Below are positions 7,769 through 33,655 of a DNA stretch of 64,000 nucleotides, one piece after another. Numbering within the stretch: position 1 is the stretch's first letter; each line of letters starts with the position of its first letter. A program made the position numbers and the translations under genes. Under the pieces are notes generated by a model. The model made no database searches. It was not told where the DNA came from and saw only the letters and a program-made list of their open reading frames with translations. The DNA lies in contig JAHIZV010000139.1 of NCBI GenBank assembly GCA_018814445.1, forward strand, positions 4,342-68,341, written 5' to 3'. The stretch is from Verrucomicrobiota bacterium (GTDB lineage: Bacteria > Verrucomicrobiota > Kiritimatiellia > JAHIZV01).

Positions 7769-8209
7769 TCAGGTCGCGATCTTATCGATGGCTTTACTGA
7801 TCGCATGCCATGACATGGTCGCACATTTGATCCTGAGCGGATAGCGGCGGACGCCCTCCAGAGAGGCCATGTCGCCCAACTCCGCCAGGTCTGAATCCTT
7901 CTCGCCGCGCATCACGGCCACGAAATCGGCGATGATCTGCCTGGCCTCGTCCACGGGCTTGCCAACGACCGCTTCGGCCATCATCGACGCCGATGCCATG
8001 CTGATGGCGCAGCCGTGGCCATCGTAGCGGATATCTTTGACTACACCGTCGGCAACCACGGCCGTCATCCGGATCTGGTCGCCGCACGTCGGATTATACT
8101 CGTCCACCAGAACTTCGTCGTCATTCAGTTCAGAGAAGTGGCGCGGGTTCTTGAAGTGATCAAGGATGATCTCCTGGTAGAGTTCATCCATATCTGCATT
8201 GCTGCTCAT
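7769..8209 (-). CDS. sufU: SUF Fe-S cluster assembly scaffold SufU (NifU/IscU-like)
   Basis: 146 aa with conserved Cys/His (CGD...GHGC...C); directly downstream of sufS. Confidence 0.75.
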   Translation of the reverse strand: MSSNADMDELYQEIILDHFKNPRHFSELNDDEVLVDEYNPTCGDQIRMTAVVADGVVKDIRYDGHGCAISMASASMMAEAVVGKPVDEARQIIADFVAVMRGEKDSDLAELGDMASLEGVRRYPLRIKCATMSWHAISKAIDKIAT

Positions 8210-9474: not shown

Positions 9475-9491
9475 AGACGCCCTGCCCGTTT

Positions 9492-9526
9492 GGTGTTCGA
9501 TGTTCCATGTTCGATGTTCGATGTTC
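9492..9526. repeat. TTCGATG-family heptamer tandem repeat upstream of sufS
   Basis: gtgttcgatgttccatgttcgatgttcgatgttc. Confidence 0.8.
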
Positions 9527-9529
9527 TTC

Positions 9530-9856
9530 TCACGCTTTCACCAGAATCTTCTCGCCTTCGATTTTCACTTTGAACGTCGGGATCGGCTTTGTGGCCGGCA
9601 GACTCAACTGTTGACCGTTTCGAATATCAAAACGCGCGCCGTGAAACGGACAGGTCAACTCACATCCTGCCAGATCGCCGCTGATCAGAGACATTCGCTG
9701 ATGACTGCACCAGGCGCTCACTGCGTGAAACTGACCATCGACCTTGAAAAGCCCAATCTGCTTCTCTCCGCCCAGATCCACCAGCTTCCGATCCGTTTCC
9801 TCAAACTCGCCGACCGTGGCGACCTCATGCCACTCCTTGCTGTCAAACAGTCCCAT
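9530..9856 (-). CDS. Rieske [2Fe-2S] ferredoxin-like protein embedded in the suf operon
   Basis: CSH...CPFHG Rieske ligand pairs; 108 aa. Confidence 0.7.
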   Translation of the reverse strand: MGLFDSKEWHEVATVGEFEETDRKLVDLGGEKQIGLFKVDGQFHAVSAWCSHQRMSLISGDLAGCELTCPFHGARFDIRNGQQLSLPATKPIPTFKVKIEGEKILVKA

Positions 9857-9892
9857 CGTTATCTCCTGCTCCCTTTTTCCCTCGCTGCGAAG

Positions 9893-11200
9893 CTACCCTC
9901 TCTCCTGCACGTACGCATGCACCCGGTCACGAATAAACTCGTAGGGTATTCTTTGCGCGACCTCGTCGTAAAATCCGTTAATCACGACCTTGCGGGCCTC
10001 ATCCTGGCTGATTCCGCGCGAGCGAAGGTAAAACAACTGGTCTTCGTCAAGATTCCCTATCGTTGCTCCGTGACTGCACTTCAGGTCATCCGCATCAATC
10101 AGCAGACCCGGGATCGTGTCGGCTCTCGCCGAATCGCTCAGAACAAGATTGTTGTTCGTCTGATACGCATCGACTTTCACCGCTCCCGGCTTCGCGACGA
10201 TAATGCCCTGGTACACGGAGTGACTCTCGTCATTCACCGCTCCCTTGTACAGAAGCCGACTGTACGTATTCGGCGACGAGTGTATCTGCAAGGTCTTCTG
10301 GTCTACGTGCTGTTCGCCGTGCGTGAAGAACAGGCCGTCCAGTTCAGCCGCGGAGCCCTCGCCCGCAACATCACACGCGATTCGGGCTTTGACCAGGCGA
10401 GAACCGAAATTGAGCCCGATCCACTCAATGGTCGCGTTTCTTTCGACGCGGGCCCAGTCGTTGGCAAGATGCGCGCTCTGATCGTTCAGCTCCTGCAGGC
10501 TGATCACCTTCAGGACAGCACCATCTTCCACATACATTTCCTTCGTCGAGACACAGATCACCGCGCTGTCCGGACTGTTCCCGGTGCATTCGACTACGGT
10601 AGCGGACGACTGCGCACCGGATGAAAGGACCAGGCGAGGGACAAATGCCCCCGCTTCCGACTCGACGTCGCAACGCACCAGAATACCCCTCTCCAAGACC
10701 ACGTTGGGCTCTATCCGGACCAGCAACCCGAAATTCCAGAACGCGGAATTGAGCGCTTCGAACTTCCCGGCTTCCTCTCCGATCGCTTTGCCGTCAAGAT
10801 ACTGTGCCATCAATCCAGGCTCCTGTTCAGCAGCTTCGGAAAGACCCATCACTTTGACTTTGCCATCGGCAAGAAGTCCCGAGGCATCCTGTACGCCGAA
10901 GCCGTCCGCCGACACGCTCACCACGATGTCGAACAGGCTGTCATTGGGTCCCGCGACATATTTTCCTGCGGGAATGACGGGCAGAAGCTGCACTTTATCG
11001 AACGGGAACATCTGCGGGCTCGTGCGGCGCCACTCCTCATCCACTGCCCTGGGAGCGGGCAGGCCGAGGTAGCGCTCAAAAGCCTTCTGCCTTGCGGCGA
11101 TGGAGGCTTCCGCGTCGGTCAGTACCAGTTGCTCGAAAGCCCCGGCATCAAACCCGGGAATGTTCTCTTCTCGTTTCTCTGCTTCCATTTGCGTGTTCAT
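9893..11200 (-). CDS. sufD: Fe-S cluster assembly protein SufD
   Basis: 435 aa SufB/D family protein, positioned after sufB. Confidence 0.8.
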   Translation of the reverse strand: MNTQMEAEKREENIPGFDAGAFEQLVLTDAEASIAARQKAFERYLGLPAPRAVDEEWRRTSPQMFPFDKVQLLPVIPAGKYVAGPNDSLFDIVVSVSADGFGVQDASGLLADGKVKVMGLSEAAEQEPGLMAQYLDGKAIGEEAGKFEALNSAFWNFGLLVRIEPNVVLERGILVRCDVESEAGAFVPRLVLSSGAQSSATVVECTGNSPDSAVICVSTKEMYVEDGAVLKVISLQELNDQSAHLANDWARVERNATIEWIGLNFGSRLVKARIACDVAGEGSAAELDGLFFTHGEQHVDQKTLQIHSSPNTYSRLLYKGAVNDESHSVYQGIIVAKPGAVKVDAYQTNNNLVLSDSARADTIPGLLIDADDLKCSHGATIGNLDEDQLFYLRSRGISQDEARKVVINGFYDEVAQRIPYEFIRDRVHAYVQERG

Positions 11201-11228
11201 AACTCACAATCCAATCCACAATCCAAAA

Positions 11229-12677
11229 TCATCCGATGCTTCCCTCAAGTTTAATTTCCAGCAGTTTCGTGGCTTCGACCGCGAATTCCAGGGGAAGCTT
11301 CTTGAATACGTCCTTGCAGAACCCGTTGACCACGAGATTGATCGCGCTCTCTTCATCAATGCCGCGGCTCTTGATGTAGAACAGTTGATCCTCGCTGATC
11401 TTGGAAGTCGTGGCCTCGTGCTCGATAATCGCCGTGCTGTCTTCCGCTTCGATATACGGCACTGTATTCGCACTGCATTTGTCTCCGACCAACATGGAGT
11501 CGCAGATCGAGTAGTTTCTGCATCCCTTCGCACCCGGAACAACCTGAACAAGACCCCGATATGTATTAACGGACTCGTCACACGATATCCCTTTGGAGAC
11601 GATCGTACTCTTCGTGTTGTTGCCGACATGAATCATCTTCGTCCCGGTATCGGCCTGCATCCGGTTGTTGGTCACGGCCACGGAGTAGAATTCACCGGTG
11701 GAGCCGTCGCCCTCAAGGATACAGCTCGGGTACTTCCACGTGATCGCCGCACCCGCTTCCACCTGAGTCCAGGAGATTTTCGATTTCCTGCCCCGGCAGT
11801 GACCGCGCTTGGTCACAAAGTTGTAGATGCCGCCCCGGCCCTTTTCATCACCCGCGTACCAGTTCTGAATGGTCGCGTACTTGATCTCCGCGTTGTCCAT
11901 CGCGATCAATTCGACCACGGCGGCGTGCAGTTGGTTGGTGTCGCGCATCGGAGCCGTGCAGCCTTCGAGGTAGGACACGTAGGCGCCTTCGTCCGCGATA
12001 ATCAGCGTGCGCTCAAACTGCCCCGTGTCCTGCGCGTTAATACGAAAGTAGGTCGAGAGTTCAACCGGACATTTCACGCCCTTCGGAACGTAGACGAAGG
12101 ATCCATCCGTAAATACCGCAGAGTTCAGCGAGGCAAAGTAGTTGTCGGTGTGCGGGACTACCGCCCCCATGTACTTCTTGATCAGATCAGGATGCTTGAT
12201 AATCGCTTCTGAAATCGGACAGAAGATAATGCCCATCTCCTCGAGCATTTCCTGATGGGATGTAGCCACTGACACACTGTCAAAGACGGCATCGACAGCG
12301 ACACCCTCCAGGCGCTTCGCTTCACCGAGCGGAATGCCTAGTCGCTCAAAGGTCTTCGAAATCTCCGGGTCTATCTCCCCGTCTTCATTCTTGAAGCGGT
12401 CAATCATCTTCTTTGGAGCCGAGTAGTAGCGGATGTCCTGATAGTCGATCTCCGGATAGTCCAGCAACGCCCATCGCGGCTCTTTCCTTGTCGTCCACCA
12501 TCTGTACGCCTTCAAACGCCACTCAAGCATCCACTCCGGCTCATTCTTCTTGGCCGAAATAAAGCGAATGATATCTTCATTCAGCCCCTTCGGAGCCTCA
12601 TCAGCTTCGATGTCAGTAACGAAGCCGTACTTGTACTCGCCGGAGGCAAATGTCTCTTTTGTTTCAATTTCACTCAT
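11229..12677 (-). CDS. sufB: Fe-S cluster assembly protein SufB
   Basis: 482 aa, strong SufB-like sequence throughout. Confidence 0.9.
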
Positions 12678-12709
12678 ATACCTGACCTCTGACTTCTGCC
12701 TTCTCTCCC

Positions 12710-13498: not shown

Positions 13499-13502
13499 TC
13501 AT

Positions 13503-13543
13503 TCGATGTTCATTGTTCGAAGTTCGATGTTCGATGTTCAAAG
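13503..13543. repeat. TTCGATG-family heptamer tandem repeat upstream of sufC
   Basis: ttcgatgttcattgttcgaagttcgatgttcgatgttcaaag. Confidence 0.8.
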
Positions 13544-13888
13544 ATCGAATCCAAGCTCCAACTTAGCTTCTTCAGACATCCGGTCCGGGCCCCAGGGGGG
13601 ATTCCAGATAACGTTCAAATTCACTGCCTTGATGCCCGGCTGTGTCTGCGCGGTCTGATCGACCTGGTACAGAAGCTGAGGACCATAGGGACAGCCCGGC
13701 GTCGTCAACGTCATATCGATATCCGCCGCGCCGTCTTTCACCCGCACATCATAGAGAAGTCCGAGATCCACAATGTTCATGTGCAGTTCGGGATCCAGAA
13801 CCGTCTTTAGAAGTTCACGTACAGCATCCTGCAGTTGTTCGTCTGTCAGCGTCTGCCCTTCCCCCTGTTCTTTCACTTCGTCCGTCAT
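13538..13888 (-). CDS. SufT/DUF59 (MIP18-family) Fe-S assembly protein
   Basis: 116 aa with a PGCP-containing DUF59 signature; located in the suf operon. Confidence 0.65.
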   Translation of the reverse strand: MTDEVKEQGEGQTLTDEQLQDAVRELLKTVLDPELHMNIVDLGLLYDVRVKDGAADIDMTLTTPGCPYGPQLLYQVDQTAQTQPGIKAVNLNVIWNPPWGPDRMSEEAKLELGFDL

Positions 13889-15353: not shown

Positions 15354-16289
15354 CTACATCCTCTCACTGCACGACGCGCCGTAGGCGAAGCAGGAGAAGC
15401 AGCGATGATGTTTCATCATAATGCGGGCCTTCATGGCATCACTCAATGTGCTCCCGAGATCGTAGTCCGCATCATCGTCAACCAGCGTGCAGGCATAGAC
15501 CCGCATTTCTCCGTCTTTCTTCAGGACGAACTTGGTATAGTCGCACATGAAGCCGGAGCGGCTCTTCTCGGTGTGATACGTCGTCATACAGTTCTCGGTG
15601 ATCTCCGGCACGTCGGGTGTCTCTCCCGGCGTCAGAAATTCCGGAAAGCTGACGATATTGATGTCGGTCGGAACGCCGATCTCATCGAGGAACGGAGCGA
15701 ACTGCCGGTCAATCGCCTCTGCGTCTTCATCCTTCGCCCGCTGACGCGCAATCGAAACAGGAAAACCGTAGACATGAAGTCTGCGCAGGGCGTCCAGCGA
15801 CTGCCGGAACGTTCCCGGGCCCCTTCCCTGCTCGTGCTTCGTCTCATCGGGATAGTCTATGCTGACGCGAAATTTCAGCGGATGCGGCTTCTCAAGCAGA
15901 GGCAATACTTCTTCCATTCTATTCAGAAGAGGCTCGGTGCCGTTGGTAAGGACAAGACACGGGCAGTGATCCAATGCGCGGTCCAGGATTCTGACAAACT
16001 CAGGAATCACGAAGGGTTCACCGCCTGTGAACGAGAACTGCTCCACGCCCATCGACATCGCCTCGTCTATGAAAGGCTTCGCGTCATCGAACGTGATTGG
16101 GTTGATCCGGTTGTCGCCCGGTTTTGATCCTTCGAGACAGAACGGACAACGAAGATTGCAGGTTGTCCCCGTATGAAACCACAGTTCGGTCAGCTTCTCA
16201 GGCAGAATATACCCCCTGGCTTCCCCCCGTGAGGTCAGAAGCCAGTCGCTCTCTGCCTTTGAACGTTGAACGTTGAACTTCGAACTCAT
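15354..16289 (-). CDS. Radical SAM protein with C-terminal Cys-rich region (possibly ArsS/TIGR04167-like)
   Basis: CNLRCPFC (Cx3Cx2C) plus C-terminal CxxC...C cluster; start placed at ATG 16289 forming an ATGA overlap with the upstream stop. Confidence 0.65.
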   Translation of the reverse strand: MSSKFNVQRSKAESDWLLTSRGEARGYILPEKLTELWFHTGTTCNLRCPFCLEGSKPGDNRINPITFDDAKPFIDEAMSMGVEQFSFTGGEPFVIPEFVRILDRALDHCPCLVLTNGTEPLLNRMEEVLPLLEKPHPLKFRVSIDYPDETKHEQGRGPGTFRQSLDALRRLHVYGFPVSIARQRAKDEDAEAIDRQFAPFLDEIGVPTDINIVSFPEFLTPGETPDVPEITENCMTTYHTEKSRSGFMCDYTKFVLKKDGEMRVYACTLVDDDADYDLGSTLSDAMKARIMMKHHRCFSCFAYGASCSERM

Positions 16290-18764: not shown

Positions 18765-18837
18765 GTTCAAAGTCCTCAGTTCAAGGTTCAAAGAGTCTCT
18801 ATGCCTCCTTTGAACTATAAACTTTGAACTTTGAACC
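18765..18837. repeat. Inverted GTTCAAA/TTTGAAC heptamer arrays in the divergent PduO/suhB promoter region
   Basis: gttcaaagtcctcagttcaaggttcaaag...ctttgaactataaactttgaactttgaacc. Confidence 0.8.
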
Positions 18838-18860: not shown

Positions 18861-19652
18861 ATGTCTGATCCTTCTTACACAGACTACCTCGAGACAGCGA
18901 TCGCTGCCGCCCGCGCCGGCGGAGAGCACGCGTATGCCAATCAGTATCGCCGCAACGAGGTGGACGAACAGTTCGCGCATGACGTGAAACTGGTCCTGGA
19001 CCGCGAGACGCAGGCGGTCGTGGAGAAGGTCCTTCGCGACAGGTATCCGGAACACGCGATCCTGGGTGAAGAAGGCGGCGAGGCGGACGATTCGCGTCCG
19101 ACGTGGATCGTGGATCCCATCGACGGCACCGTTAACTACTTTCACGGCATGCCGATCTGGTGCTGTTCCGTCGCGATACAGGTGGACCGACGTATCGTAG
19201 CCGGAGCCGTCTATGTCCCTCCTCTGAACGAACTCTATACGGCAACGACAGATGGGCCGGCCCTTCTGAACGGCGAACCCATCGGGCCGTCCAAAGTCGC
19301 CTCACTCGCGGAGGGCATGGTGGCTACGGGTCTTTCTAAAAACGTGAGTGCCGGAGGGGTTATCGACCGGCTTACACGGCTCTCCCTGTCGGCTCAGAAG
19401 GTACGAATCATGGGTGCAGCCGCTGTCGATATCTGTCACGTCGCCTGCGGACGGGCGGATGGATATATCGACTCGGGCATCTACATCTGGGACGTCGCGG
19501 CCGCAGGACTGATCGCAGAACGCGCAGGCGCACAGGTGGAGATCATCGAATACATCGACGATATGCAGTTCCGGTATCTCTGCTCAAACGGGCTGATTCA
19601 CGATGATTTGAAGAAGATCATCACAGATCAGTATCAAGAGCCCGAAGACTGA
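18861..19652 (+). CDS. Inositol monophosphatase family protein (SuhB-like)
   Basis: WIVDPIDGT metal-binding motif and the IMPase fold signature. Confidence 0.8.
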   Translation: MSDPSYTDYLETAIAAARAGGEHAYANQYRRNEVDEQFAHDVKLVLDRETQAVVEKVLRDRYPEHAILGEEGGEADDSRPTWIVDPIDGTVNYFHGMPIWCCSVAIQVDRRIVAGAVYVPPLNELYTATTDGPALLNGEPIGPSKVASLAEGMVATGLSKNVSAGGVIDRLTRLSLSAQKVRIMGAAAVDICHVACGRADGYIDSGIYIWDVAAAGLIAERAGAQVEIIEYIDDMQFRYLCSNGLIHDDLKKIITDQYQEPED

Positions 19653-20019
19653 CCGTCACGCGAACGGAAGGCCGTTCTTTCATCGAGACCGTCACAACGT
19701 CCCACGCAACCGTCTCGCGGCCCACCTTCACAAATCCTTCTTCGCTGTCGACGTCCCACTCCCCGGCGGCGTCACCATCTTCCAGACCCAACTGCCGGCT
19801 GGTGAATGTCGATTGCGCACCAAGCGCCGCCTCTTGAAACAGCTGAGCCTGTCTCTCCGCGGTAAGCGAGCGTATGAGCGATGTGCCTACAACAGTTGCC
19901 AGCACACCGACAATCAGAAGGGCGACGAGCACCTCAATGAAGGAGAATCCGTTCTCTTTGAACTTTGAACTGAGAACTTTAAACTTAGGAATCCCCACTG
20001 GAAATATCCGCCGCATCAT
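19621..20019 (-). CDS. Minor pseudopilin (prepilin-type N-terminal cleavage/methylation domain)
   Basis: G|FSFIEVLVALLIVGVLA prepilin signature; leader overlaps the 3' end of the upstream pseudopilin gene; start codon uncertain. Confidence 0.55.
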   Translation of the reverse strand: MMRRIFPVGIPKFKVLSSKFKENGFSFIEVLVALLIVGVLATVVGTSLIRSLTAERQAQLFQEAALGAQSTFTSRQLGLEDGDAAGEWDVDSEEGFVKVGRETVAWDVVTVSMKERPSVRVTVSLRALDTDL

Positions 20020-20458
20020 CCACTCCGCCGGGTTCGCCGTCGCTTCCGTAGCTGATAATCTCATAAGGCAGGTTATCTCTCCCCGGAACCAGGTAGATGT
20101 ACGGCCGCCCCCACGGATCGAGGGGCACATCCCTGCTTTCGAGATACCCTTCGTCCGGATAGTTGCGGGGAACCGGCGCGGTCGCGGGCTCCCTGACCAG
20201 CGCATCAAGTCCCTGCTGTTGAGTCGGAACGAAACCGTTCTCCGTGCGATAGACCTGGATCGCAGTCTGCAGATTCTTGATCTGCACTTTCGCGGCAGTG
20301 ATCCGCGCTTCGGCAGGCTTCCGCAATACGTTGCCCCCCACAATCCCCGCCAAGACCGCGATGATGACGAGAGCGACGAGAATCTCAATCAACGTGAAGC
20401 CCTGCCTGCGATCGCCTCGATGTCCGATGTTCGATGTTCGATGTTCGATGTTTTCCAT
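19985..20458 (-). CDS. GspG-like major pseudopilin (type II secretion/type IV pilus-like)
   Basis: G|FTLIEILVALVIIAVLA plus DPWGRPY GspG motif; ATG 20458 with GGAGG SD (GTG 20464 would overlap the polB stop); the 20-aa leader is encoded by the AACATCG x3 repeat. Confidence 0.7.
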   Translation of the reverse strand: MENIEHRTSNIGHRGDRRQGFTLIEILVALVIIAVLAGIVGGNVLRKPAEARITAAKVQIKNLQTAIQVYRTENGFVPTQQQGLDALVREPATAPVPRNYPDEGYLESRDVPLDPWGRPYIYLVPGRDNLPYEIISYGSDGEPGGVDDAADISSGDS

Positions 20459-20460
20459 CC

Positions 20461-22713
20461 TCACCCTCCGAGTCCCAACTCCTGCTGAGCAGTCTCATTT
20501 TCAATAGTCGCAAACTTCTTGTACAGCGCCTCGAGCTTCGCCACATAGTAGGGAACATTCTCATCCCTGTTGTCCGGATCCCATTCTGCCACGGATCTGG
20601 CCGCTTCGTAAACAGCGACGCTCTTCTTCGCACCCGTCACGTAGTACGATATCTGATCCCCCGCCTGGTAAGCCCGTCCCGAATTCAAGGCCAGCTCGTA
20701 TGCCGCGTTGCGGCCCCGGCTCTTGCCCTTGATCTTCTCCGCGTACGTGGCGGGGGCGTCCTGGAGTGTCTCGGTCTTGGCGAGCATCTGAATCGGCCAG
20801 GTCTTCTCCTCGATGCACTTTCTATACTGATCGTGCAGTTCACCGATCCGCTCGTTGTTCCGCTCGAGCTTCAATCTTAACATCTCCCGCAAAAACTCCC
20901 GCTGGAATCTCTCCAGGCCGCGGGACTTGAGGGCCGCACCCTTGATGATTACCTCATCATGCTCGTCAAGAAGTGCATAGTTCTTCATCTTGTAGCTGAA
21001 CATCGCCTTGTACTCGGCATCAAATTCGATATCGATGCCCTCAGGCAATGAGGCCTCAAAGTCGGCTCTGAACTTCTTCAGCTCCTTATCTGACTTGAAG
21101 GGCGGCGGAACGAAGTAGATACCGTCGGTGTCGATCTCGATGGTCTTCGCGCCATTGCCGTCGAGCCACTTGATCATCTGCTTCAGAAGCTGTCTTCCCT
21201 CGTAGGCCACTTTCTCGGCGGAAGAGAAATCGCTGAAGCGCGCCTGACGAAAACCCAGGTAACCGTAAAACGAATTGATCAGGATCTTAAACGTGCTCTG
21301 AAGCGCGTCAAGGTAGACCTTCTCGTCAGCGTTCTTTGTGTTCTGCATTTTCGTCTTCGCGTCGATCCTGAACGAACGCAAGTAGTCGAGCAACTCGAGG
21401 AATATCCTCAATTCGTCTGTCCTGGGGCACAACTGCTGAGTCAGCATCAGGGATGGATACAGCGAGCGAACGTCACAATGATGAACATTCTCCTCAACGC
21501 CGACGACAAACACGTCGGTGTATCCCCCGGCGAACTCCCGCGGTATATCCGGATACGGGATAGCCTCATCCCGCCGGACGTATTCACGGAGCAGAAGAGA
21601 GTCAATCTTCGCTCCGTTGCCCCTGACGCTGACATTCTGATACGAGAAAGGAAGAATCTGGGCCTGCGCGAAGTAGATCGGGGACAGGATGTTGCTGATT
21701 TCACGCGTCTCGATGATGTCATCACAGGCGTAGTCCATGAGCGTTGAGGGATCCTTATCGAACATGGACGCAATCTCCGCTCCCTCGATGTACGTCCTTC
21801 CTTCGGGAGCAACGCCGAAGTGGATAGCGACTTCTTTCAGTCCAAATCCCTCAAGCGCACGGTTGGTGATATCGTAAAGCTGGACCAGGAAAAGCGTGTC
21901 GATGACGTGCCGGCCGAATATGTCGAACTTCGGATACGTGATGGACCGCTCCCCTGCGATAAAACGGCCGGGACGGCTCTTAATCGTGCTTCCGTCCCTG
22001 CCAAGCGTCATCTTCACTTTGTGACGCTTCGCGCGCGTCGCGATGAACGGCAGATCGAATCTGAAAATGTTGTGTCCCTCGATAACGTCAGGATCTTTCT
22101 CCTTCACTATCTCGACGAACTTCTGCAGAAGCGCCTTCTCGTCGAGTTCCGCCCCTGAGAGCACTTCCGTCCATCCCGTCTCGTCCGCCAGGGCAATCGC
22201 GATGATCCTGTCCTCTTCACGTTCGGCGTTGGGGAACTCATAGCCTTTCGTCGTGTAGGTCTCGATATCGACCTGGAGCCGTTTGAGTTCTCCGAACTTC
22301 AATCCCTTGAACAGCGTTCTGCCAGTGAGCAGTAGGTACTGTTGGACCGGATCGGTGAGGTAGTAATAGGGAGCTTCTCCTGAAGAGGGATTCTGGCCCG
22401 TTTTCCTTCGCAGGAACTTAACCGCGTCCTGGCAATCCTTCCACGAATCGAACTCGGCCCGGTATTTGAAGGCCCCCTTCCCTGACAGGTCGTGAATCCC
22501 GTGTCGTATTTCCGAATCAGACAGCAGATCCGGGCTGACCAACCAGATGAACGGCTTGAAGGGCTCCTTCTCCTGTGTGAGTGCGTTGCCGGCGCGAACG
22601 AACCGGGTGATCTCATCGGCGGCGTCCTTGTTCCTCGTCAACTCAACGGCAACAAGACCTTCACCGGGATGGTGACCGAAGATGAGGCGGTTGTCAGACG
22701 GGTCCTTGATCAT
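20461..22713 (-). CDS. Family B DNA polymerase (Pol II-like) with 3'-5' exonuclease domain
   Basis: Exo I DIETY; motif A DVRSLYPS; motif B KILINSFYGYLG; motif C IDTDGIY; 750 aa. Confidence 0.8.
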   Translation of the reverse strand: MIKDPSDNRLIFGHHPGEGLVAVELTRNKDAADEITRFVRAGNALTQEKEPFKPFIWLVSPDLLSDSEIRHGIHDLSGKGAFKYRAEFDSWKDCQDAVKFLRRKTGQNPSSGEAPYYYLTDPVQQYLLLTGRTLFKGLKFGELKRLQVDIETYTTKGYEFPNAEREEDRIIAIALADETGWTEVLSGAELDEKALLQKFVEIVKEKDPDVIEGHNIFRFDLPFIATRAKRHKVKMTLGRDGSTIKSRPGRFIAGERSITYPKFDIFGRHVIDTLFLVQLYDITNRALEGFGLKEVAIHFGVAPEGRTYIEGAEIASMFDKDPSTLMDYACDDIIETREISNILSPIYFAQAQILPFSYQNVSVRGNGAKIDSLLLREYVRRDEAIPYPDIPREFAGGYTDVFVVGVEENVHHCDVRSLYPSLMLTQQLCPRTDELRIFLELLDYLRSFRIDAKTKMQNTKNADEKVYLDALQSTFKILINSFYGYLGFRQARFSDFSSAEKVAYEGRQLLKQMIKWLDGNGAKTIEIDTDGIYFVPPPFKSDKELKKFRADFEASLPEGIDIEFDAEYKAMFSYKMKNYALLDEHDEVIIKGAALKSRGLERFQREFLREMLRLKLERNNERIGELHDQYRKCIEEKTWPIQMLAKTETLQDAPATYAEKIKGKSRGRNAAYELALNSGRAYQAGDQISYYVTGAKKSVAVYEAARSVAEWDPDNRDENVPYYVAKLEALYKKFATIENETAQQELGLGG

Positions 22714-22843
22714 TCGAACAGTATAGGGAAGAAGTCCGAGATCAGAAGTCAGAAGTCAGAGGGCCGCGCAGAAGCACCCGTTCCAGGCGTGGAACTTCCA
22801 ATGCCTGGAAATTCCGACGGAAAAAGTTCCAAGCCCTGGAACT

Positions 22844-23023
22844 TTACTTCTTTGTGGATATCTTGAGCGGACAGTAGAGGGGGCACCACCCGATCAAACC
22901 CGTAATCAGAGGTATCGCGCCGACGGCCCCCCACCAGTTTTTGAAGTAGAGTCCGGCACCGATGATGGCCACGCCGACGAGTACCCGAATGATCTTATCC
23001 GTCTTTCCAACATTGCTTTTCAT
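22844..23023 (-). CDS. DUF2892 (YgaP-like) small inner-membrane protein, 59 aa (below the ORF-track size cutoff)
   Basis: Hand translation gives MKSNVGKTDKIIRVLVGVAIIGAGLYFKNWWGAVGAIPLITGLIGWCPLYCPLKISTKK, which fits the DUF2892 pattern. Confidence 0.55.
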   Translation of the reverse strand: MKSNVGKTDKIIRVLVGVAIIGAGLYFKNWWGAVGAIPLITGLIGWCPLYCPLKISTKK

Positions 23024-23060: not shown

Positions 23061-24515
23061 CTACTTTATCCCGTATTTATCGATTTGCGAGCAGCTCTCA
23101 CACGATTCGCGACTCAGTTCATCTTCGATGCCCCGCAGCACCTCTTCCGCGATCGCTTTTTCGGTCCTGAACCTTTCAACCAGTTCTTCTACGGTGACGT
23201 AGCCGTATTTTTCACTGAGCCGCACCCAGTCACGCCCGTACCTGTAGGCTCTGCCCAGCATCGCCTTGCGGATGATCGGCCGCGCATGCAGAACCGGCGC
23301 GAGATCCAACTGCCTGTACTCAACACCGGCTGCCTGCAAACGGAGAAACCACTCCGTGTCTTCCGCGTTCCCGAAGTCGCTATTGCGTACGAACTTTCGG
23401 ATCAGATCGGCAGGACCCGCCGTGTTTGACATGTTGGGAGTTGTATCGGTGATGGTAACACCGTGAACGATGGCGTTCGGCACAACGGCCGCCGCCAGTT
23501 CCGTCAGCCAGTTTTCGTTCAGCGGAGAGCAGTCTGTCTCGGTGAACACAATGATATCGCCGGTGGCTTTGTCGACGGCCTCCTGAAAAGCCTCGGCCAG
23601 GCCGGGCGCGGTGGAAGTGCAAAACTCAAAAGATGGATAAGCCTGCTTCCGAAGCTCGCGCATCTTCTCTTCAATCTCGGCATCTGTCTTCGCGACGAGC
23701 ACGATGCTTATTTTCGGAGGCTTGTCCGTTCCCTGTTTCTCTGCAGTGATCCACGGCTGTAACCGGTATCTCCGCACTACTTTCTCGAAGTCAGGATCCC
23801 TTGCGCCTTCGACCCGCGCCCGGGTGTGATTCCGGTCGTGGACCCGGTAGTGGAAGGCCGTATCCGGCACATACTTTCCGACCTGGTTCTGTTCGAGGAG
23901 CCGCAGCCATAAATCCCAGTCGTGATACGTGCGCAAACTCGGATCCAGTTGGACCGATGTCCGCCAGAGCATGGAGCATGTGTCGATATAGTTACCCCGG
24001 CGAAGGCGATCTGGATCAAAGTCACCGACTTCTACCCGTGTGACATCGGAGCCCTCAGGATCATAGTCGGGATGCCACGATGCTTCATAGTGCATGATCC
24101 TGTCGCCGTAAGCGAATGCCGGTCGAGATCCGTTCCTGCCGCGAGTCATCAATGCGCTCGCACACTTTCTCACAAAGTCGGGCTCAAGCCAGTTGTCTAC
24201 ATCGAGAAGAAGAATCCTGCGCCCACGACTCATCGACAGTCCGAATATGCGCGCCCGGTTCGCGTTTCCCTCCTCAATTCTGAAGTAGCGAATCCGCCTG
24301 CTACGCTTGCGATACCGCCTGACGACCTCTGATGTCGAATCTCGGGAGCTGTCGTCGACGACAATGATCTCGCGCGGCACATATCCCCTCTCCTGCTTGA
24401 GAATACTGTCGAGACAGGCCGGCAGAAAAGCGGCCCCATCCCGGCATGGAATGATGACAGACACGTCCCTGGCAAAACGACTTTCGGCAAATCTAAAAGG
24501 CACTCGCCCCTCCAC
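23061..24515 (-). CDS. Family 2 glycosyltransferase (two GT-like domains)
   Basis: VIIPCRDGAAFL...DDSSRD...LLDVD GT-A/DxD signatures in the N-terminal half, plus a second GT-like half. Confidence 0.7.
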   Translation of the reverse strand: MEGRVPFRFAESRFARDVSVIIPCRDGAAFLPACLDSILKQERGYVPREIIVVDDSSRDSTSEVVRRYRKRSRRIRYFRIEEGNANRARIFGLSMSRGRRILLLDVDNWLEPDFVRKCASALMTRGRNGSRPAFAYGDRIMHYEASWHPDYDPEGSDVTRVEVGDFDPDRLRRGNYIDTCSMLWRTSVQLDPSLRTYHDWDLWLRLLEQNQVGKYVPDTAFHYRVHDRNHTRARVEGARDPDFEKVVRRYRLQPWITAEKQGTDKPPKISIVLVAKTDAEIEEKMRELRKQAYPSFEFCTSTAPGLAEAFQEAVDKATGDIIVFTETDCSPLNENWLTELAAAVVPNAIVHGVTITDTTPNMSNTAGPADLIRKFVRNSDFGNAEDTEWFLRLQAAGVEYRQLDLAPVLHARPIIRKAMLGRAYRYGRDWVRLSEKYGYVTVEELVERFRTEKAIAEEVLRGIEDELSRESCESCSQIDKYGIK

Positions 24516-24583: not shown

Positions 24584-25519
24584 CTATTTCAGGAACCACT
24601 CGACGGTGCGGGCAAGACCTTCATCGAACGGCACCGAGGGATTCCAGCCGAGAAGTTCCCTGGCCCTGGTCGAATCGGCCTGGGAATCGCGCACGTCCCC
24701 AGGACGCGGTTTGCCGTGAAGCGGCGGGATGTTTTTGCCCATGATAGCTGAGATTTTCGCGGCGAGTTCGTTGATTGACGTGCGGTAGCCCCACGCAAGA
24801 TTGTATACACCGCCCGCGGCATCCTCCGGCGCCGTGCAACAGCACAGATTACCGGCGATGACGTCCGCGACAAACGTGAAGTCGCGCGTCTGTTCCCCAT
24901 CGCCGTCAATCGTCGGAGGGCGCTCGTTCTTGAATGCGTCAACGAACAACGGGATCACCGCGGCGTACTGTGAACCCGGATCCTGCCTGGGGCCGAAGAC
25001 ATTAAAGTAGCGCAGTGCAAATGTCTTCAACCCGTAGAGACGGTGGAAAATGCGGCAGTAGTGTTCGCCGGTCAACTTGTTCAGCGCGTAGGGCGAAAGC
25101 GGATTGGGAGTCATATCTTCCCGCTTCGGCAAAGTGGGGGTATCGCCGTACACGGAAGAAGACGAAGAAAAGACAAAACGGTCGACGCCGGCATCGCGGG
25201 CCGCGATCAGAAGATTCAATGTGCCTGTCACATTGACTTCGTTGCTCGTGAATGGATCCTCGACCGAACGGACCACCGACCCAAGTGCTCCGAGATGCAG
25301 GACGAAGCGAACGCCATCAACAGCTCTCTGAAGATCGTCAACGTTTCTCAGGTCGCCCACGACAAGGTCGATACTGCTTTCGAGACCCGCGAGGTTCTCA
25401 CGCCGCCCGGTCGAGAAGTTATCGAGCACGCGGACGCTTGATCCATCGGAAACAAGTTTGTGAACAATGTTGGAGCCGATAAAGCCCCCACCGCCGGTTA
25501 CAAGGTAGTCAACAGCCAT
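24584..25519 (-). CDS. NAD-dependent nucleotide-sugar epimerase/dehydratase
   Basis: TGGGGFIGSN Rossmann motif, YxxxK; start at Met MAVDYLVTGG. Confidence 0.8.
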   Translation of the reverse strand: MAVDYLVTGGGGFIGSNIVHKLVSDGSSVRVLDNFSTGRRENLAGLESSIDLVVGDLRNVDDLQRAVDGVRFVLHLGALGSVVRSVEDPFTSNEVNVTGTLNLLIAARDAGVDRFVFSSSSSVYGDTPTLPKREDMTPNPLSPYALNKLTGEHYCRIFHRLYGLKTFALRYFNVFGPRQDPGSQYAAVIPLFVDAFKNERPPTIDGDGEQTRDFTFVADVIAGNLCCCTAPEDAAGGVYNLAWGYRTSINELAAKISAIMGKNIPPLHGKPRPGDVRDSQADSTRARELLGWNPSVPFDEGLARTVEWFLK

Positions 25520-25535
25520 GCAGAAATATCCCCAG

Positions 25536-27698
25536 TTATCGTCCCAGATCCAGGTGAGCCCTGGGCAGCGCCAGTATCCAGAGCTGAGCCCATACAGTGA
25601 TGTCGTTATCGACCTCTTTCCACCCGACGCCCCAGCCAAGACAGTCCATTTTATGGTCTATCTCATAGCGATGCTCTTCGATATCGTTGCCGTCGAGGTC
25701 ATAACGCCAGTAGGCTCGGTAGGTCCATTTCTCCTCTGGAAACAGTTCCGTACTGAATGCGATCTGATCACGCCTCTCATCGATGAATCTGTACTCAAGT
25801 CCGGCGGTCGACCCCGCCCGGCTCTCCAAATACATCTGCGCGTTGAACTCTTCGATATTGGTGTCATAGAAATTGTAGCGGCCATCGACATCCAGGGAGT
25901 ACCAGTCGACAAATCTGAATTCCGCATCGACATCCAACGTCGAGAAATCATCCTCTCCCTCTGCCGGATCAAGGCGGTAGTCGGTATGAACGTCGAGATC
26001 AAGGAGGTCCCGGATCTGCTTCTGCTTCTTTGTCTGGAACTTGTTCCTGACGCCGAGCCTGATCTGATGAAACTTGTCCAGCGCGTCGATATCATCGAAC
26101 TGGTAAAGGTCTGCGGGTTCAACGCTGGGCGTCGGGACGTAGGTGTACTGGGCATAGGGCTCGACTACGTGGCGCAAGCCGCGGCCGAACCGGTTCTGGT
26201 TGGGACTGATCTCCTTGAACGATTTGAACGAGGTCTCGAAGCCCAGTTCAAAGAGGGAGCGGAATTCGGCGCCTCCGCTCGCCACTGTGATTTCGATGTT
26301 GGTTTCGGTGCCGATCACCACACCATTCGTATCAGTCAGAGGCGACAAGACCTCATTCTCCGTGGCCAGGGGGGTATCCGAGTAATATGTGCCTCTCACT
26401 CCTGCCTGCGGGATGAAGTTCAGAAACCCGAAATGCCGTGTGGGATAGATAAAGACATGGTGCGTATCGAGGCGAAGAGAGTCGTAATCCTCGATTCCCG
26501 AGCCCTCCGGGAATACGCGCGCCAACCGGGCGAGGCTGTTGTCACTCTCGTAGTAGAATCCAGAACTGCCGACCTCCTGGCGGCTTATATCGAGGGTCAG
26601 TTCCGGCGTCCGGTCCACACTCTCGTAGAAGTCATTCAGCCTCTTGGTAACCTCCGCGCCCACCGTGTAGTCGTCTTCGCGGTGCAGGAGAGAAACGCGA
26701 TTCTCCGGCTGGGAGTTCCTCCTGAACTCGCCGTCGAAGAAATCCTCGAGTACGTCCGGATCACTCAGGTAGTTCAGTTCGGTGATAAGGTAGGTCCGGT
26801 CGCTCATCTTCTGGTTGTGCGACAGCCGCGCGCGGTAGCGCTCACTGCTTATTAAATCGCCGCGATCCAGTTCTTCTTCTTTGCTGTCAAAGGGCTCCTT
26901 GTCATCAAGGTAATACAACCTCAATCTCCCCGCGTAGTCGCGGTCCGGCGATTTCCATTCAAAGTCCTGGCCAACACCGACCCCCCGCTTCGAGCGGTAG
27001 TCGAGATGGGTTCTGCCTTTGGTGACGGGTGTTACATTGTAGTTGTAGGAGGACAGAAGAAAGGCCCCCATCTTACCGCTATAACCGGGTGTGACATCGA
27101 TGCCTGTATCCCGGTCGTCAAAATCCCGTTTGGCCCACGGCAGGTAGAAGATAGGCACGGGACCGAGAAACACGCCGAAATGCTTCACTTTCAGAATGTG
27201 ATTGTCTATCAGCCTTCCCTCGCGCGCTCTGAAGGAATACTCGGAGTCGCCGGGTTTGCACGTACTCATTCTCAGCTTATAGAGATGGAATTCGTTGCTT
27301 GAGACGCGCTCGGAATCTTCAGCATGTACGTAGTAGGGATCGAATTCCGCGGAGAATTCGCCGAAGTCGCCCTGCTGTGTATCGAAGTTGTAGTGAACTT
27401 CCTCGCCTGCCCAGGTGCGCCCGCCACGGTCAAATACGACATGGCCGCGGGCATACACTTCTGATGTCTCTGTTTCGACTTCGATATAGTCGGCCCGAAG
27501 CTCATCGCCGCTATCCGTTACAACAACGTTGCCGACACCTACCAGGATCTTACGGCCGGCATCGTATTCCAGCCGGTCGGCCTGAATATCCACCCCGCCG
27601 GCTGCGACACCGACGTCGGCAGCGAGAATCGTCTTCTCCAAAAGGAACCCTGTTGCCGCCGCAAGCAGCAGAACCAGCCAGAATCTGTGAAGTGTCAT
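25536..27698 (-). CDS. lptD: LPS-assembly protein LptD (OstA family)
   Basis: Signal peptide, OstA N-terminal domain and large beta-barrel C-terminal domain; ~720 aa. Confidence 0.75.
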   Translation of the reverse strand: MTLHRFWLVLLLAAATGFLLEKTILAADVGVAAGGVDIQADRLEYDAGRKILVGVGNVVVTDSGDELRADYIEVETETSEVYARGHVVFDRGGRTWAGEEVHYNFDTQQGDFGEFSAEFDPYYVHAEDSERVSSNEFHLYKLRMSTCKPGDSEYSFRAREGRLIDNHILKVKHFGVFLGPVPIFYLPWAKRDFDDRDTGIDVTPGYSGKMGAFLLSSYNYNVTPVTKGRTHLDYRSKRGVGVGQDFEWKSPDRDYAGRLRLYYLDDKEPFDSKEEELDRGDLISSERYRARLSHNQKMSDRTYLITELNYLSDPDVLEDFFDGEFRRNSQPENRVSLLHREDDYTVGAEVTKRLNDFYESVDRTPELTLDISRQEVGSSGFYYESDNSLARLARVFPEGSGIEDYDSLRLDTHHVFIYPTRHFGFLNFIPQAGVRGTYYSDTPLATENEVLSPLTDTNGVVIGTETNIEITVASGGAEFRSLFELGFETSFKSFKEISPNQNRFGRGLRHVVEPYAQYTYVPTPSVEPADLYQFDDIDALDKFHQIRLGVRNKFQTKKQKQIRDLLDLDVHTDYRLDPAEGEDDFSTLDVDAEFRFVDWYSLDVDGRYNFYDTNIEEFNAQMYLESRAGSTAGLEYRFIDERRDQIAFSTELFPEEKWTYRAYWRYDLDGNDIEEHRYEIDHKMDCLGWGVGWKEVDNDITVWAQLWILALPRAHLDLGR

Positions 27699-28007
27699 GC
27701 TCACCCTCATGCTTGAAATCGTGGCGCGCACCGTAGCACAGGGGCCCCCAGACGCAAAGGAGAATGTCAAATTGGACTGCAGGGGTAATCGGGGTGGAGC
27801 GGTGGTGCAGAGATCTCATCTCCATGATCCATCAACCATGGGCGGCTCTCCGGGTTGGCCTCAGCTGACTTAAGGCCGGGACATGCCTTACGGCATTGAC
27901 TACGAACGATGCAAACTTCGTCTATTGTTTGTAGTGAAGCCCGTCAGGGCTGTGCCTTTCTTTGCCTGGCGCATCCGAAAGTGGTCTTAAGTCAGCGGCA
28001 TTCGCCC

Positions 28008-28390: not shown

Positions 28391-28843
28391 CTACACCATC
28401 CGCAGGACGTGTTTGAACTGCGCCCCGGTGACGGGCTGAACCGACAAGCGAGAACCTTTCTGAACGACCATCATGTCCTTGAGCGCCGCGTCCTGCTTCA
28501 ACTCGGCGAGTGCGACAATACGCGGGAACTTCTCCACAAATTCGACGTCGACCATCATCCAGACCGGTTTTTCCGGCGTGGAACGCTCATCGAAGTACCT
28601 GCTCTTCCTGTTCCACGCAAAGTGATCAGGATAACCCTCGCGGCAGATGCGGCCCACCCCTGCCACCCCGGAAGGATCGGCATTCGAATGATAGAAGAGA
28701 ACCGGATCCCCCACCCTCATATCGTCGCGCATGATGTTCCGCGCCTGGTAGTTGCGGACACCTTCCCATTGCGTAGCCCCGTCCCGTTCCAGATCGTCAA
28801 TCGAGTAGACAGACGGTTCACACTTCATCAGCCAGTATTTCAT
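28391..28843 (-). CDS. EVE (PUA-like) domain protein
   Basis: MKYWLMKCEP... typical EVE/DUF55 N-terminus; 150 aa. Confidence 0.75.
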   Translation of the reverse strand: MKYWLMKCEPSVYSIDDLERDGATQWEGVRNYQARNIMRDDMRVGDPVLFYHSNADPSGVAGVGRICREGYPDHFAWNRKSRYFDERSTPEKPVWMMVDVEFVEKFPRIVALAELKQDAALKDMMVVQKGSRLSVQPVTGAQFKHVLRMV

Positions 28844-31614: not shown

Positions 31615-32793
31615 ATGCGCTTTCTGCTATCAACGTTATGTATTGCAGTCCTTCTCGCGGCCGGCCCGGTTCAGGGACTGACTAACGGGGTCAGGCTGAC
31701 CCTTGACGTGAGCTCGGATCTCCTGGGTGAGAACTTCCACGATGACGAGGCCGTTTCGTTGGGGCCCAACGCAGCCGGCACCATGATCGATTTCACCGCC
31801 TACGGGGTGCCCGAACGGGTTGGTATCGACGCCCTGATGGTTTACAGTAATCGTGTCGTGTTCTCCGGCGATGTGGATTTCTATACGAACGCCGAATACC
31901 ACGCGGATGAAGATCTGCTCGACCTCAATGTCACCGGCGGAACATTCACGGCTTTCTGGAACGGAGACTACGCGGGTATTCCCCGGGCCGCCGACGTTGA
32001 CGCCGCGTGTTTTGTGACGCCCGGCGGACAGTTCCTATTCTCCATCGATATCACGACGGAACTGCCGGGCGCGGGCACGGTCACGGACGACGACGTCATC
32101 AGGTGGAACGGAGCTTTCAGCAAAGCCTACGACGGGCAGACAAATCTCTCCATCCCCCCCGCCGCCGACATCGACGGTCTGTATCTCGGCACCAACAACG
32201 TACTCTACTTCTCTCTCGATACCACAGCCACCATCAACGGCTACACCGGGCAGGACGAAGACGTGTGGGCCTACGACATAGGGTCCGCGATTGTTACTCT
32301 CGCTGTCGACTATGACTCCCTCCGGACCGGCGCAGATGTCGTGGGCCTCGACAAAGCGACTGACAGCGACAGTGACTGGCTGACTGATTTTGAGGAAATC
32401 ACGGGTCTTGATGAACCCGGAATTACGATTCCGGGAACCGCCACACCGGTCGATCCCGAAGGCAGTACGTCCAATCCGAATGACAACGATACGGATGACG
32501 ACGGAGCTTCGGACGGTGAAGAAGCCGTCGCCGGCACGAATCCCCGGGACGGCAGTGACCTTCTGAAGATCACGCAGATCGATCGGGGGAGTCTGACAAA
32601 CCTCGTGGCCTGGTCAACCAAGACAAACCGCACCTACATTCTCGAAGCCACTACAAATCTGGTGACCACCCAATTCGCGCCTGTCGAGACCAGCATCGTC
32701 CCCGTGCCCGGCAGCACCAATACGGTCAGAAAACACCTGACCGGCAACACGAATGTGGCGGTGTACCGAGTGCGAGTACAGACGTCGCCGTAG
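31615..32793 (+). CDS. Secreted protein with thrombospondin type-3-like (Asp-rich calcium-binding) repeats
   Basis: Signal peptide; DSDSDW..D, NPNDNDTDDDGASDGEE, NPRDGSD repeats. Confidence 0.55.
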   Translation: MRFLLSTLCIAVLLAAGPVQGLTNGVRLTLDVSSDLLGENFHDDEAVSLGPNAAGTMIDFTAYGVPERVGIDALMVYSNRVVFSGDVDFYTNAEYHADEDLLDLNVTGGTFTAFWNGDYAGIPRAADVDAACFVTPGGQFLFSIDITTELPGAGTVTDDDVIRWNGAFSKAYDGQTNLSIPPAADIDGLYLGTNNVLYFSLDTTATINGYTGQDEDVWAYDIGSAIVTLAVDYDSLRTGADVVGLDKATDSDSDWLTDFEEITGLDEPGITIPGTATPVDPEGSTSNPNDNDTDDDGASDGEEAVAGTNPRDGSDLLKITQIDRGSLTNLVAWSTKTNRTYILEATTNLVTTQFAPVETSIVPVPGSTNTVRKHLTGNTNVAVYRVRVQTSP

Positions 32794-32922
32794 AAGAAGG
32801 TTTTGGGTGTTCGGTGTTCGGTGTTCGGTTGAGATAACTGCTTATTCAACCATCCCCCATCAACCATCAACTATGGGTGGTTCTGTCGGGCGGCAATCCA
32901 TGGGTGGCGAATTGGGGGGAGT

Positions 32923-33652: not shown

Positions 33653-33655
33653 AAG

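Follow-up and report, generated by a model that had tools for sequence, protein, structure and literature searches.

In a 64,000-nucleotide stretch of contig JAHIZV010000139.1 from a Verrucomicrobiota bacterium (the whole 64-kb stretch is referred to as the window), a gene for a family-B DNA polymerase (polB) is followed by gspG, encoding the major pseudopilin of a type II secretion system (T2SS), and by a gene for a minor pseudopilin. We conclude that these three genes probably constitute an inherited operon, in which the polymerase and the pseudopilins are coupled in gene expression and do not share a function. All three genes were located on the minus strand where a sequence-only reading of the window had placed them. 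That reading had also described a polymerase of 750 aa with a complete set of motifs and had called the pairing unusual. Our analysis confirmed the genes and motifs, and the pairing proved to be both real and conserved and passed the two tests suggested in that reading.

Relatives of the window PolB were collected in a scan that was restricted to one genome per species and yielded 80 loci, which are designated by L numbers. Among the 29 evaluable loci of Kiritimatiellota or Lentisphaerota type, gspG directly followed polB in 25, namely, the window and 24 of the 28 others. In these 25 loci the identity of PolB was 52 to 63%, and an open reading frame (ORF) with a prepilin motif began 8 to 140 nt after the polB stop codon. 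The downstream proteins are orthologous GspGs, 49 to 61% identical to the window protein. The remaining four loci contained polB without a following gspG. The linkage was found in none of 49 loci of other lineages, which comprised NC10, Binatia, Desulfobacterota, anammox Planctomycetota, Acidobacteriota, Nitrospirota, Chthoniobacterales, Methylacidiphilum, and a divergent set of Victivallales. As one possibility, the sequence-only reading had considered the linkage to be fortuitous, a consequence of numerous pseudopilin genes scattered at random, and PVC (Planctomycetes-Verrucomicrobia-Chlamydiae) genomes do carry many prepilin-type proteins. However, the window contains exactly two ORFs with a prepilin motif, both directly after polB. 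Over all loci, 24 such ORFs were found in the 6 kb after polB, compared to one in the 306 kb that make up the rest of these loci and one in the 530 kb of the remaining loci, that is, two in approximately 840 kb elsewhere. Considering also that an orthologous GspG of 50 to 71% identity occupies the same position in 25 of the 29 genomes, we rejected fortuitous adjacency and give it next to no credence.

The history of the linkage was evaluated using a neighbor-joining tree of PolB, which was rooted with a PolB of bacterial group G3 from a Salinibacter phage and from which fragments were left out. All 28 gspG-linked PolBs fell within one clade of 33 tips, the other tips being the four gspG-less loci and one locus that was not evaluable. 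In the tree, Kiritimatiellota-like and Lentisphaerota-like sequences separate into subclades. This topology fits a single origin of the linkage followed by a few losses. An earlier, midpoint-rooted tree, in which other phyla were nested among PVC sequences, was dropped, as it had been distorted by a 95-aa fragment (L060).

The linkage looks different from the side of gspG. For this purpose, a metagenome scan with the GspG profile provided 80 loci, to which six orthologues of 58 to 67% identity on long contigs were added. At 55% identity or more, four of the five loci in the metagenome scan had polB upstream, whereas gspG of L085 was found in the context of an extracytoplasmic function sigma factor instead. 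In the 75 loci at 52% identity or less, polB was absent throughout, and most of them were canonical, with additional pseudopilin genes around +450, +950, and +1350 and with the Walker A motif of GspE near -2000 wherever it was detected. Three of the added orthologues (L166, L168, and L169) contained polB and gspG with overlapping or abutting stop and start codons, the overlaps in L168 and L166 being 4 and 8 nt, respectively, and two of the three were situated in entirely unrelated contexts. In L164 and L167, gspG and the minor pseudopilin gene occurred without polB, still near the genes for SuhB, an epimerase, and LptD. In L165, gspG follows RNase E/G and LptD genes, without polB; the distance from lptD to gspG is 90 nt, and the 755-aa protein encoded before gspG is 38% identical to the window LptD. 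Overall, polB preceded gspG in 7 of the 11 GspG-side loci, and an orthologous gspG (58 to 67% identity) without polB was found in the other 4 (L085, L164, L165, and L167). Since gspG follows polB in 25 of 29 loci but polB precedes gspG in only 7 of 11, polB would be the dispensable partner at this locus, and gspG appears to accompany polB when polB moves.

The junction between the two genes is compact. In the window, the gspG start codon (ATG, 20458) lies 2 nt past the polB stop codon (TGA, 20463-20461), and a GGAGG Shine-Dalgarno (SD) sequence (20469-20465) is contained in polB, 6 nt upstream of the ATG. Both features had been recognized in the sequence-only reading. An alternative GTG start at 20464, which that reading had also proposed, does overlap polB, but the overlap amounts to 4 nt (GTGA) rather than 3 nt. 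Stop and start codons overlap as ATGA (TTGA once) in 13 of 24 relatives, with GGAG 5 to 12 nt upstream, again inside polB. In several relatives the SD bases double as codons for a Q-[QK]-E-[LM]-x-L motif at the C terminus of the polymerase, where CAG/AAG-GAG provides AGGAG; in the window, the SD sequence is instead found in two extra Gly codons after this clamp-like motif. A terminator scan of the window revealed no terminator-like site between polB, gspG, and the minor pseudopilin gene. The genes thus exhibit the sequence hallmarks of operons with coupling: a common strand, no intervening terminator, an abutting start codon, and an SD sequence inside the upstream gene. Conservation, start/stop overlaps, and the embedded SD sequence speak against a chance adjacency and are strong arguments that the genes form a genuine, translationally coupled operon.

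The same junction can be explained by historical lock-in without cotranscription. In that case, gspG would be regulated independently by a promoter inside the 3' part of polB, and a separation of the two genes would destroy both the promoter and the ribosome-binding site (RBS). The SD sequence of gspG, and necessarily any proximal promoter, is located inside polB. Moreover, the stoichiometry of a T2SS demands that the major pseudopilin is expressed far above the level of an accessory polymerase. Some junctions are also looser, with spacers of approximately 90 to 110 nt in L008, L011, and L012. In L021, a G+C hairpin and seven T were found between polB and gspG (about 2845-2940), followed by a separate GGAGG for gspG; the genes of this single lineage seem to be uncoupled yet adjacent. 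Against independent regulation, the ATGA-type overlaps in 13 lineages are a classic sign of translational coupling on a shared mRNA. In addition, a scan for the sigma-70 consensus gave three matches where 1.9 were expected, which corresponds to chance and includes no convincing internal promoter, although this consensus is weak and uninformative for PVC bacteria. We regard lock-in without cotranscription as rather unlikely, though it deserves some weight.

Clustering of ORFs from all loci placed polB and gspG last in a same-strand array that comprises the genes for PBP2, RodA, RNase E/G, LptD, the epimerase, PolB, and GspG and is often followed by convergent genes for SuhB and SMC. In L165, a Lentisphaerae contig, the array extends upstream to mreB, mreC, and mreD. 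At least 20 related loci encode LptD upstream of polB, the epimerase gene (cluster c8) lies directly upstream of polB in eight relatives, and the convergent SuhB neighbor also occurs in L002, L003, L010, L019, L024, L029, L030, L164, and L169. According to a hand estimate from locus coordinates, the gap between polB and its upstream neighbor ranges from about -13 to +96 nt. In the closest relatives, L001 to L004, lptD is no longer found upstream of polB (it was relocated in L003), whereas polB-gspG, with or without the minor pseudopilin gene, is intact. Also conserved beside this block is the gene for an EVE-domain protein, located just upstream of lptD (window 28391-28843, minus strand), which was also found in L164, a Kiritimatiellia contig (15632-16120, minus strand). 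A c8-cluster epimerase gene was additionally observed within a few kilobases of a G3 polB in L036, L044, L045, and L058 (Desulfobacterota, Scalindua, and Binatia); this proximity across phyla may merely reflect how common such epimerases are.

The trio was found in unrelated contexts in L001, L166, and L168, and this could be taken as the mark of a mobile or horizontally transferred cassette, for example, one of phage or integrative-element origin. Polymerases of group G3 are encoded by Salinibacter and Nostoc phages (PMC7544198), and in L081 a DDE transposase gene is located 8 kb from the trio. However, neither an integrase or transposase gene nor repeats or a tRNA were found beside the trio in the window, and the GC content across the region is flat. 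In most loci, the flanks consist of core genes in conserved order, and the PolB tree is divided into Kiritimatiellota-like and Lentisphaerota-like parts, as for vertical descent. A mobile element was therefore rejected as the origin of the trio; we consider it highly improbable.

By sequence, GspG is a bona fide canonical T2SS major pseudopilin. It scored 143.9 bits with the TIGR01710 equivalog model (cutoff, 88.85), 118 bits with Pfam T2SSG, and 37.7 bits with N_methyl. The protein contains a 20-aa leader with the cleavage motif G|FTLIE and a C-terminal motif region reading DPWG...SYG.DG..GG. When compared with structures in the PDB, the profile of the GspG family matched PulG (5wda), XcpT (2kep), and EpsG (3gn9) over the full length with E values of 4e-34 to 1e-31. 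With the ComGC equivalog it reached 31.4, compared to a cutoff of 75. Other components of such systems were not encountered nearby, as the sequence-only reading had claimed for T2SS and type IV pilus genes. Pfam scans of essentially all ORFs of at least 150 aa in the window did not find GspD/E/F/C/L/M, PilB/C/D/Q, ComEA/EC, or DprA, and a regular expression for the GspE Walker A motif had no match in the window. T2SS genes for GspD, GspE, GspF, or GspO were found neither in the window nor in the flanks of related loci. It should be noted that genes for a T2SS have been reported for K. glycovorans, a cultured relative in the Kiritimatiellae (PMC5148204).

The minor pseudopilin is a small, fast-evolving protein with the prepilin motif G|FSFIE and a mature C-terminal part of approximately 85 aa. 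N_methyl/TIGR02532 were the sole models to exceed their cutoffs. There was no equivalog-level match to GspH, GspI, GspJ, or GspK (GspH, 21 versus 80; XpsI, 19.8 versus 150; GspI, not reported), and the name "GspH family" given by NCBI rests on the N-terminal segment. Similarly, its profile matched pilins in the PDB solely in the N-terminal helix, and a single-sequence AlphaFold (AF2) model had a pLDDT of 58, being confident solely for the helix of residues 27 to 74. A word-index search for homologues returned no match except the protein itself; orthologues are encoded downstream of gspG in approximately 20 related loci. The gene overlaps gspG, as had been noted from the sequence, but by 35 nt rather than 34 nt when translation begins at the ATG at 20019. 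The NCBI model of 125 aa implies the GTG start at 19998, in which case the overlap is 14 nt.

The polymerase exhibited matches above the gathering score to Pfam DNA_pol_B (PF00136; 92 bits) and DNA_pol_B_exo1 (PF03104; 70 bits). Its exonuclease motifs (ExoI, D149-I-E151; ExoII, N215..D220; ExoIII, Y328..D332) and polymerase motifs (A, D414..SLYPS421; B, K476..NSFYG484; C, E526-I-DTD530, with G531 next) are complete. The catalytic residues are invariant in an alignment of 12 sequences, the window PolB and 11 relatives of 55 to 63% identity. Bacterial PolBs fall into three groups, G1, G2, and G3 (Kazlauskas et al. 2020, PMC7544198). G1 is of the Pol II type, with a conserved Trp in the ExoII sequence GWN; G2 has a degenerate exonuclease, in which ExoI lacks conservation and ExoIII is absent, and only one Asp in motif C. 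The EpsilonN-like clade constitutes G3, and the Glu of motif C is a synapomorphy of PolEpsilonN, B10, and G3 (PMC7544198). Membership in G2 (PolB2) was ruled out by the presence and invariance of ExoI, ExoIII, and both aspartates of motif C. PolB is not an ordinary Pol II either, a placement that the sequence-only reading had considered. The best Pol II equivalog in NCBIfam (NF004421) scored 102.8 bits, against a cutoff of 570, and ExoII reads E-G-H-N-I-F-R-F-D, with GHN instead of GWN, ruling out G1 of the E. coli type. In the PDB, archaeal PolB was matched at 5e-46 and E. coli Pol II (3K57) at about 1e-12 to 2e-12.

Motif C of the window PolB carries the Glu that marks G3 and its kin (E-x-DTD), and the residues E526-I527-D528-T529-D530-G531 are invariant. 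Among phage proteins, its best matches come from Salinibacter phages (2e-138, with 38.7% identity across 97% of the query) and, after these, from Nostoc and Anabaena phages. The only viral members of G3, taxonomically the most scattered of the groups, are those of Salinibacter and Nostoc phages (PMC7544198). The relatives of PolB are likewise spread over many phyla, including PVC, NC10, Binatia, Desulfobacterota, anammox bacteria, Acidobacteria, and others, which fits G3. Based on motifs and nearest relatives, we assigned PolB to the G3 ("Pol-epsilon-N-like," EpsilonN-like) group. According to Timinskas et al. 2026 (PMC12926913), G3 PolBs are the second most abundant group of bacterial family-B polymerases and possess active exonuclease and polymerase sites along with a motif for beta-clamp binding; they are described there as experimentally uncharacterized and without a known function. 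The searched passages of that paper do not give the gene neighborhood of G3. Kiritimatiellota and Lentisphaerota are not named in the searched text of PMC7544198 or in that of PMC12926913, nor do the relevant taxa appear in the supplementary tables of PMC7544198. The sequence Q-x-[ED]-[LMF]-x-[LF] was found at or near the C terminus of PolB in many of 78 loci. In the window it reads QQELGL, which fits the beta-clamp-binding consensus, and the enzyme probably binds the clamp. With its intact motifs PolB would be a proofreading enzyme. DnaX and RecR are encoded in the window, from which we infer that a normal Pol III replisome is present in this organism, to which PolB is presumably accessory. 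In one relative, L022, dnaE (Pol III alpha; 8368-11904, plus strand; PHP, DNA_pol3_alpha, finger, HHH_6, and OB domains) directly follows polB (5920-8253) and replaces gspG, so that two DNA polymerase genes stand in tandem.

In light of these identities, a functional link between PolB and the pseudopilins was weighed. In such a module, the G3 polymerase and a filament of GspG and the minor pseudopilin would serve one process. For example, a competence-like pseudopilus could capture extracellular DNA, with PolB converting or repairing the incoming strands, or a stress program could co-induce repair synthesis and secretion. A DNA-uptake or competence connection had been raised by the sequence-only reading. 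Tight adjacency, with translational coupling predicted from the sequence, has been held across phylum-level divergence, and the trio shifts as a unit into the unrelated contexts of L001, L166, and L168. Furthermore, gspG lies outside any gspE/F operon, with no more than one minor pseudopilin gene beside it, unlike at canonical loci, and no function has been described for G3 PolBs (PMC12926913). However, the linkage has a single origin, with no convergent case among the 49 loci of other phyla. Either gene also occurs without the other, gspG in 4 of the 11 GspG-first loci and polB in 4 of 29. GspG is a T2SS equivalog that stays far below the ComGC cutoff, no ComEA, ComEC, DprA, PilB, or PilQ is encoded in the window or the conserved flanks, and the neighbors form a functionally mixed housekeeping array. 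The single origin, the mixed array, gspG without polB, the canonical T2SS nature of GspG, and the absence of DNA-uptake genes nearby argue against a shared biochemical role. We therefore found no support for the proposed DNA-uptake connection, and a functional link of any kind is unlikely; we judge the module as a whole to be improbable. Its narrower form, a minimal pseudopilus of Kiritimatiellota and Lentisphaerota that imports or exposes DNA for copying or repair by PolB, is more doubtful still. If true, it would constitute the first physiological role of G3 PolBs and a DNA-related role of a T2SS-type pseudopilin in Gram-negative bacteria.

The reading that we favor, an inherited operon with coupling in expression and without shared function, would work as follows. 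The operon would trace back, by vertical descent, to the common ancestor of Kiritimatiellota and Lentisphaerota. An orphan gspG at the distal end of an array of envelope and cell-shape genes would depend for its expression on the 3' end of an accessory polB, where ribosomes that finish polB, or that load on the embedded SD sequence, could initiate gspG. Its product would act as the major pseudopilin of a T2SS whose ATPase, platform, secretin, and peptidase are encoded elsewhere. Because the initiation signals of gspG lie in polB, the pair would be hard to separate, and where polB moves, gspG would move too. The identities of the genes, their conservation and overlaps, the single origin of the linkage, and the asymmetry of polB and gspG were shown in this analysis, whereas cotranscription, translational coupling, and the lack of a common biochemical role are deductions.

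Several observations weigh against this reading. Cotranscription and translational coupling were deduced from sequence only. The 33-tip clade is weakly supported, with a neighbor-joining bootstrap value of 51%, and the presence or absence of gspG and polB was judged at the sampled loci. The pair has outlived rearrangements that severed the link to lptD (L001 to L004, L166, and L168), and such survival could reflect selection for coexpression beyond the effect of embedded signals. Finally, as no function is known for G3 PolBs (PMC12926913), a role in the envelope or in DNA uptake may be biochemically possible.

The conserved setting in two phyla is one of few handles on the function of G3 PolBs. 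If coupling is as proposed, this whole clade would express its major pseudopilin at the end of a polymerase gene and at a distance from the other T2SS genes, which affects searches for T2SS loci and models of their regulation in PVC bacteria. It would also indicate that initiation signals embedded in the C-terminal codons of an upstream gene can hold together, for a very long time, two genes whose pairing is functionally arbitrary.

The features of the locus and its neighbors are listed in Table 1.

Table 1. Features of the polB-gspG locus and adjacent genes in the window
Feature	Position	Strand	Description and basis
polB	20461..22713	minus	family-B DNA polymerase, 750 aa; Pfam, NCBIfam, invariant catalytic residues
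gspG	19985..20458	minus	T2SS major pseudopilin, 157 aa; TIGR01710, Pfam T2SSG, N_methyl
minor pseudopilin gene	19621..20019 (ATG) or 19998 (GTG)	minus	132 or 125 aa; N_methyl/TIGR02532
GGAGG Shine-Dalgarno of gspG	20465..20469	minus	within last two polB codons; sequence
codons of PolB C-terminal QQELGL (residues 743-748)	20470..20487	minus	beta-clamp-binding-like motif
G+C hairpin with T-run	22823..22845	either strand	terminator-like; between YgaP-like ORF and polB; terminator scan
YgaP-like transmembrane protein	22844..23023	minus	59 aa; Pfam PF11127, 78.6 bits; lineage-specific insertion upstream of polB
family-2 glycosyltransferase	23061..24515	minus	Pfam Glycos_transf_2; lineage-specific insertion in the epimerase-polB interval, absent there in relatives
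NAD-dependent sugar epimerase/dehydratase (cluster c8)	24584..25639	minus	Pfam Epimerase, 201 bits
LptD, outer-membrane LPS insertion protein (cluster c4)	25536..27770	minus	Pfam LptD, 49.9 bits
inositol monophosphatase (SuhB-like)	18861..19652	plus	Pfam Inositol_P; convergent; closes the unit
GAACATC array, ~5 copies	20417..20452	minus	encodes most of the GspG leader peptide; TRF
GTTCAAA-type array, ~4.4 copies	19956..19986	minus	gspG/minor-pseudopilin junction, encodes the minor pseudopilin leader; TRF and pattern search
CTGACTT-type array, ~4.4 copies	22730..22760	minus	17 nt upstream of the polB ATG; TRF

Upstream of polB, the leader is 130 nt long, lacks an SD sequence, and lies downstream of the T-run hairpin. 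Given this hairpin, polB, gspG, and the minor pseudopilin gene are probably a transcription unit of their own in this genome. At the other end, the last 32 nt of the minor pseudopilin gene are shared with the convergent SuhB-like gene. The listed TTG start of the epimerase gene is probably too far upstream. Rfam and tRNA scans returned nothing at the polB-gspG locus.

Short tandem arrays of three to six copies, mostly with a period of 7 and some with a period of 8, were observed in the window. The repeat unit varies by gene (GAACATC, GTTCAAA, CTGACTT, GAAACCY, TCAGGTC, GGATTGT, and others), and for GAACATC a pattern search gave 13 matches, compared to 0.09 expected. In addition to the three arrays in Table 1, arrays are located at 9494-9526, 11212-11230, 12682-12704, 13502-13549, 16257-16286, 18808-18836, 32806-32871, 33657-33749, 35883-35952, 36293-36356, 40107-40163, 57458-57485, 58422-58452, and 59360-59382. 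They lie within a few to approximately 50 nt of many housekeeping start codons on both strands, often without a visible SD sequence; the associated genes include sufS/B/C/D, polB, gspG, recR, dnaX, surE, proC, and the bat operon. The window contains 18 period-7 arrays (0.28 per kb), and the density is near zero in most related loci, with the exception of L011, L019, and L036. Among described phenomena, the closest is that of the TAACTGA direct repeats, which in Beggiatoaceae, cyanobacteria, and some Bacteroidetes immediately precede start codons (PMC4679880), although the unit of the window arrays is variable. Phase variation of gspG by means of the array in its leader was considered and set aside, given that arrays of this kind are found before many of the genome's housekeeping genes.

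Elsewhere in the window, a cluster on the minus strand (33059-36261) contains a large-type signal recognition particle (SRP) RNA (35980-36261), dnaX (34160-35878), and recR (33059-33685). A 352-aa ORF on the plus strand (33237-34295) overlaps this cluster, has no Pfam match, and is probably spurious. ARAGORN reported a 94-nt "tRNA-???" with the 4-base anticodon gatt at 37256-37349 (plus strand), which was not detected by the Rfam tRNA model; it overlaps heptamer arrays at 37238-37256 and 37315-37338, and these repeats probably produced a false positive. Four ORFs had no Pfam family at an E value of 1e-3 or less (1e-4 for the 392-aa ORF): 41424-44387 (minus, 987 aa), which is the largest unannotated gene of the window, 31615-32793 (plus, 392 aa), 56367-57458 (minus, 363 aa), and 58374-59408 (plus, 344 aa).

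Literature searches on PolB with pseudopilins and on a T2SS in Kiritimatiellae returned nothing about the linkage, and the presence of a G3 polB inside an array of envelope genes, together with its coupling to gspG, appears not to have been described previously. The polymerase itself resembles other G3 PolBs in its canonical N-terminal, exonuclease, and polymerase architecture, in the presence of ExoI to ExoIII and motifs A to C, in the Glu before DTD, and in a clamp-like motif at the C terminus. With E. coli Pol II (polB; G1, SOS regulated) it has in common that both are accessory, proofreading family-B enzymes beside a Pol III replisome that bind the clamp, as predicted here for the window PolB. 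However, the similarity is distant, the equivalog score is far below the cutoff, ExoII reads GHN, and there was no sign of LexA/SOS control at this locus.

The pseudopilin genes can be compared with several known arrangements. The ComG pseudopilus of Firmicutes is likewise a short pseudopilus of a GspG-like major subunit and small minor pilins, but the window GspG scored 31 versus 75 for ComGC, is closer to Gram-negative GspG, and has no ComGA/GB, ComEA/EC, or DprA near its gene. The surrounding array is reminiscent of uber-operons such as mreBCD-maf-rng and mrdAB, in which unrelated genes on the same strand are tightly packed and kept over long evolutionary distances; an array with a family-B polymerase and a pseudopilin was not described among them in the literature searched. 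Canonical T2SS operons (gspC-O; Pul, Xcp, and Eps) have the layout E-F-G-H-I-J, which was also that of most of the 75 comparison loci. By TIGR01710, the G|FTLIE motif, and the structures of PulG, XcpT, and EpsG, the window GspG is the major pseudopilin of such systems; its gene, in contrast, is detached from gspE/F and gspH-K, with a DNA polymerase gene before it and at most one tiny, divergent pseudopilin gene after it. The T2SS genes of Acinetobacter and Psychrobacter are likewise dispersed: in Acinetobacter they are split over five loci, a distribution that is conserved across species, and some are found in putative operons with nonsecretion genes (Harding et al. 2016, PMC4713064). Acinetobacter belongs to another phylum, its gspG is found with gspF, and neither a polymerase partner nor a start/stop overlap with an unrelated gene was reported. 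Nevertheless, these dispersed T2SS genes, some of which share operons with unrelated genes, provide a precedent for the arrangement in the window.

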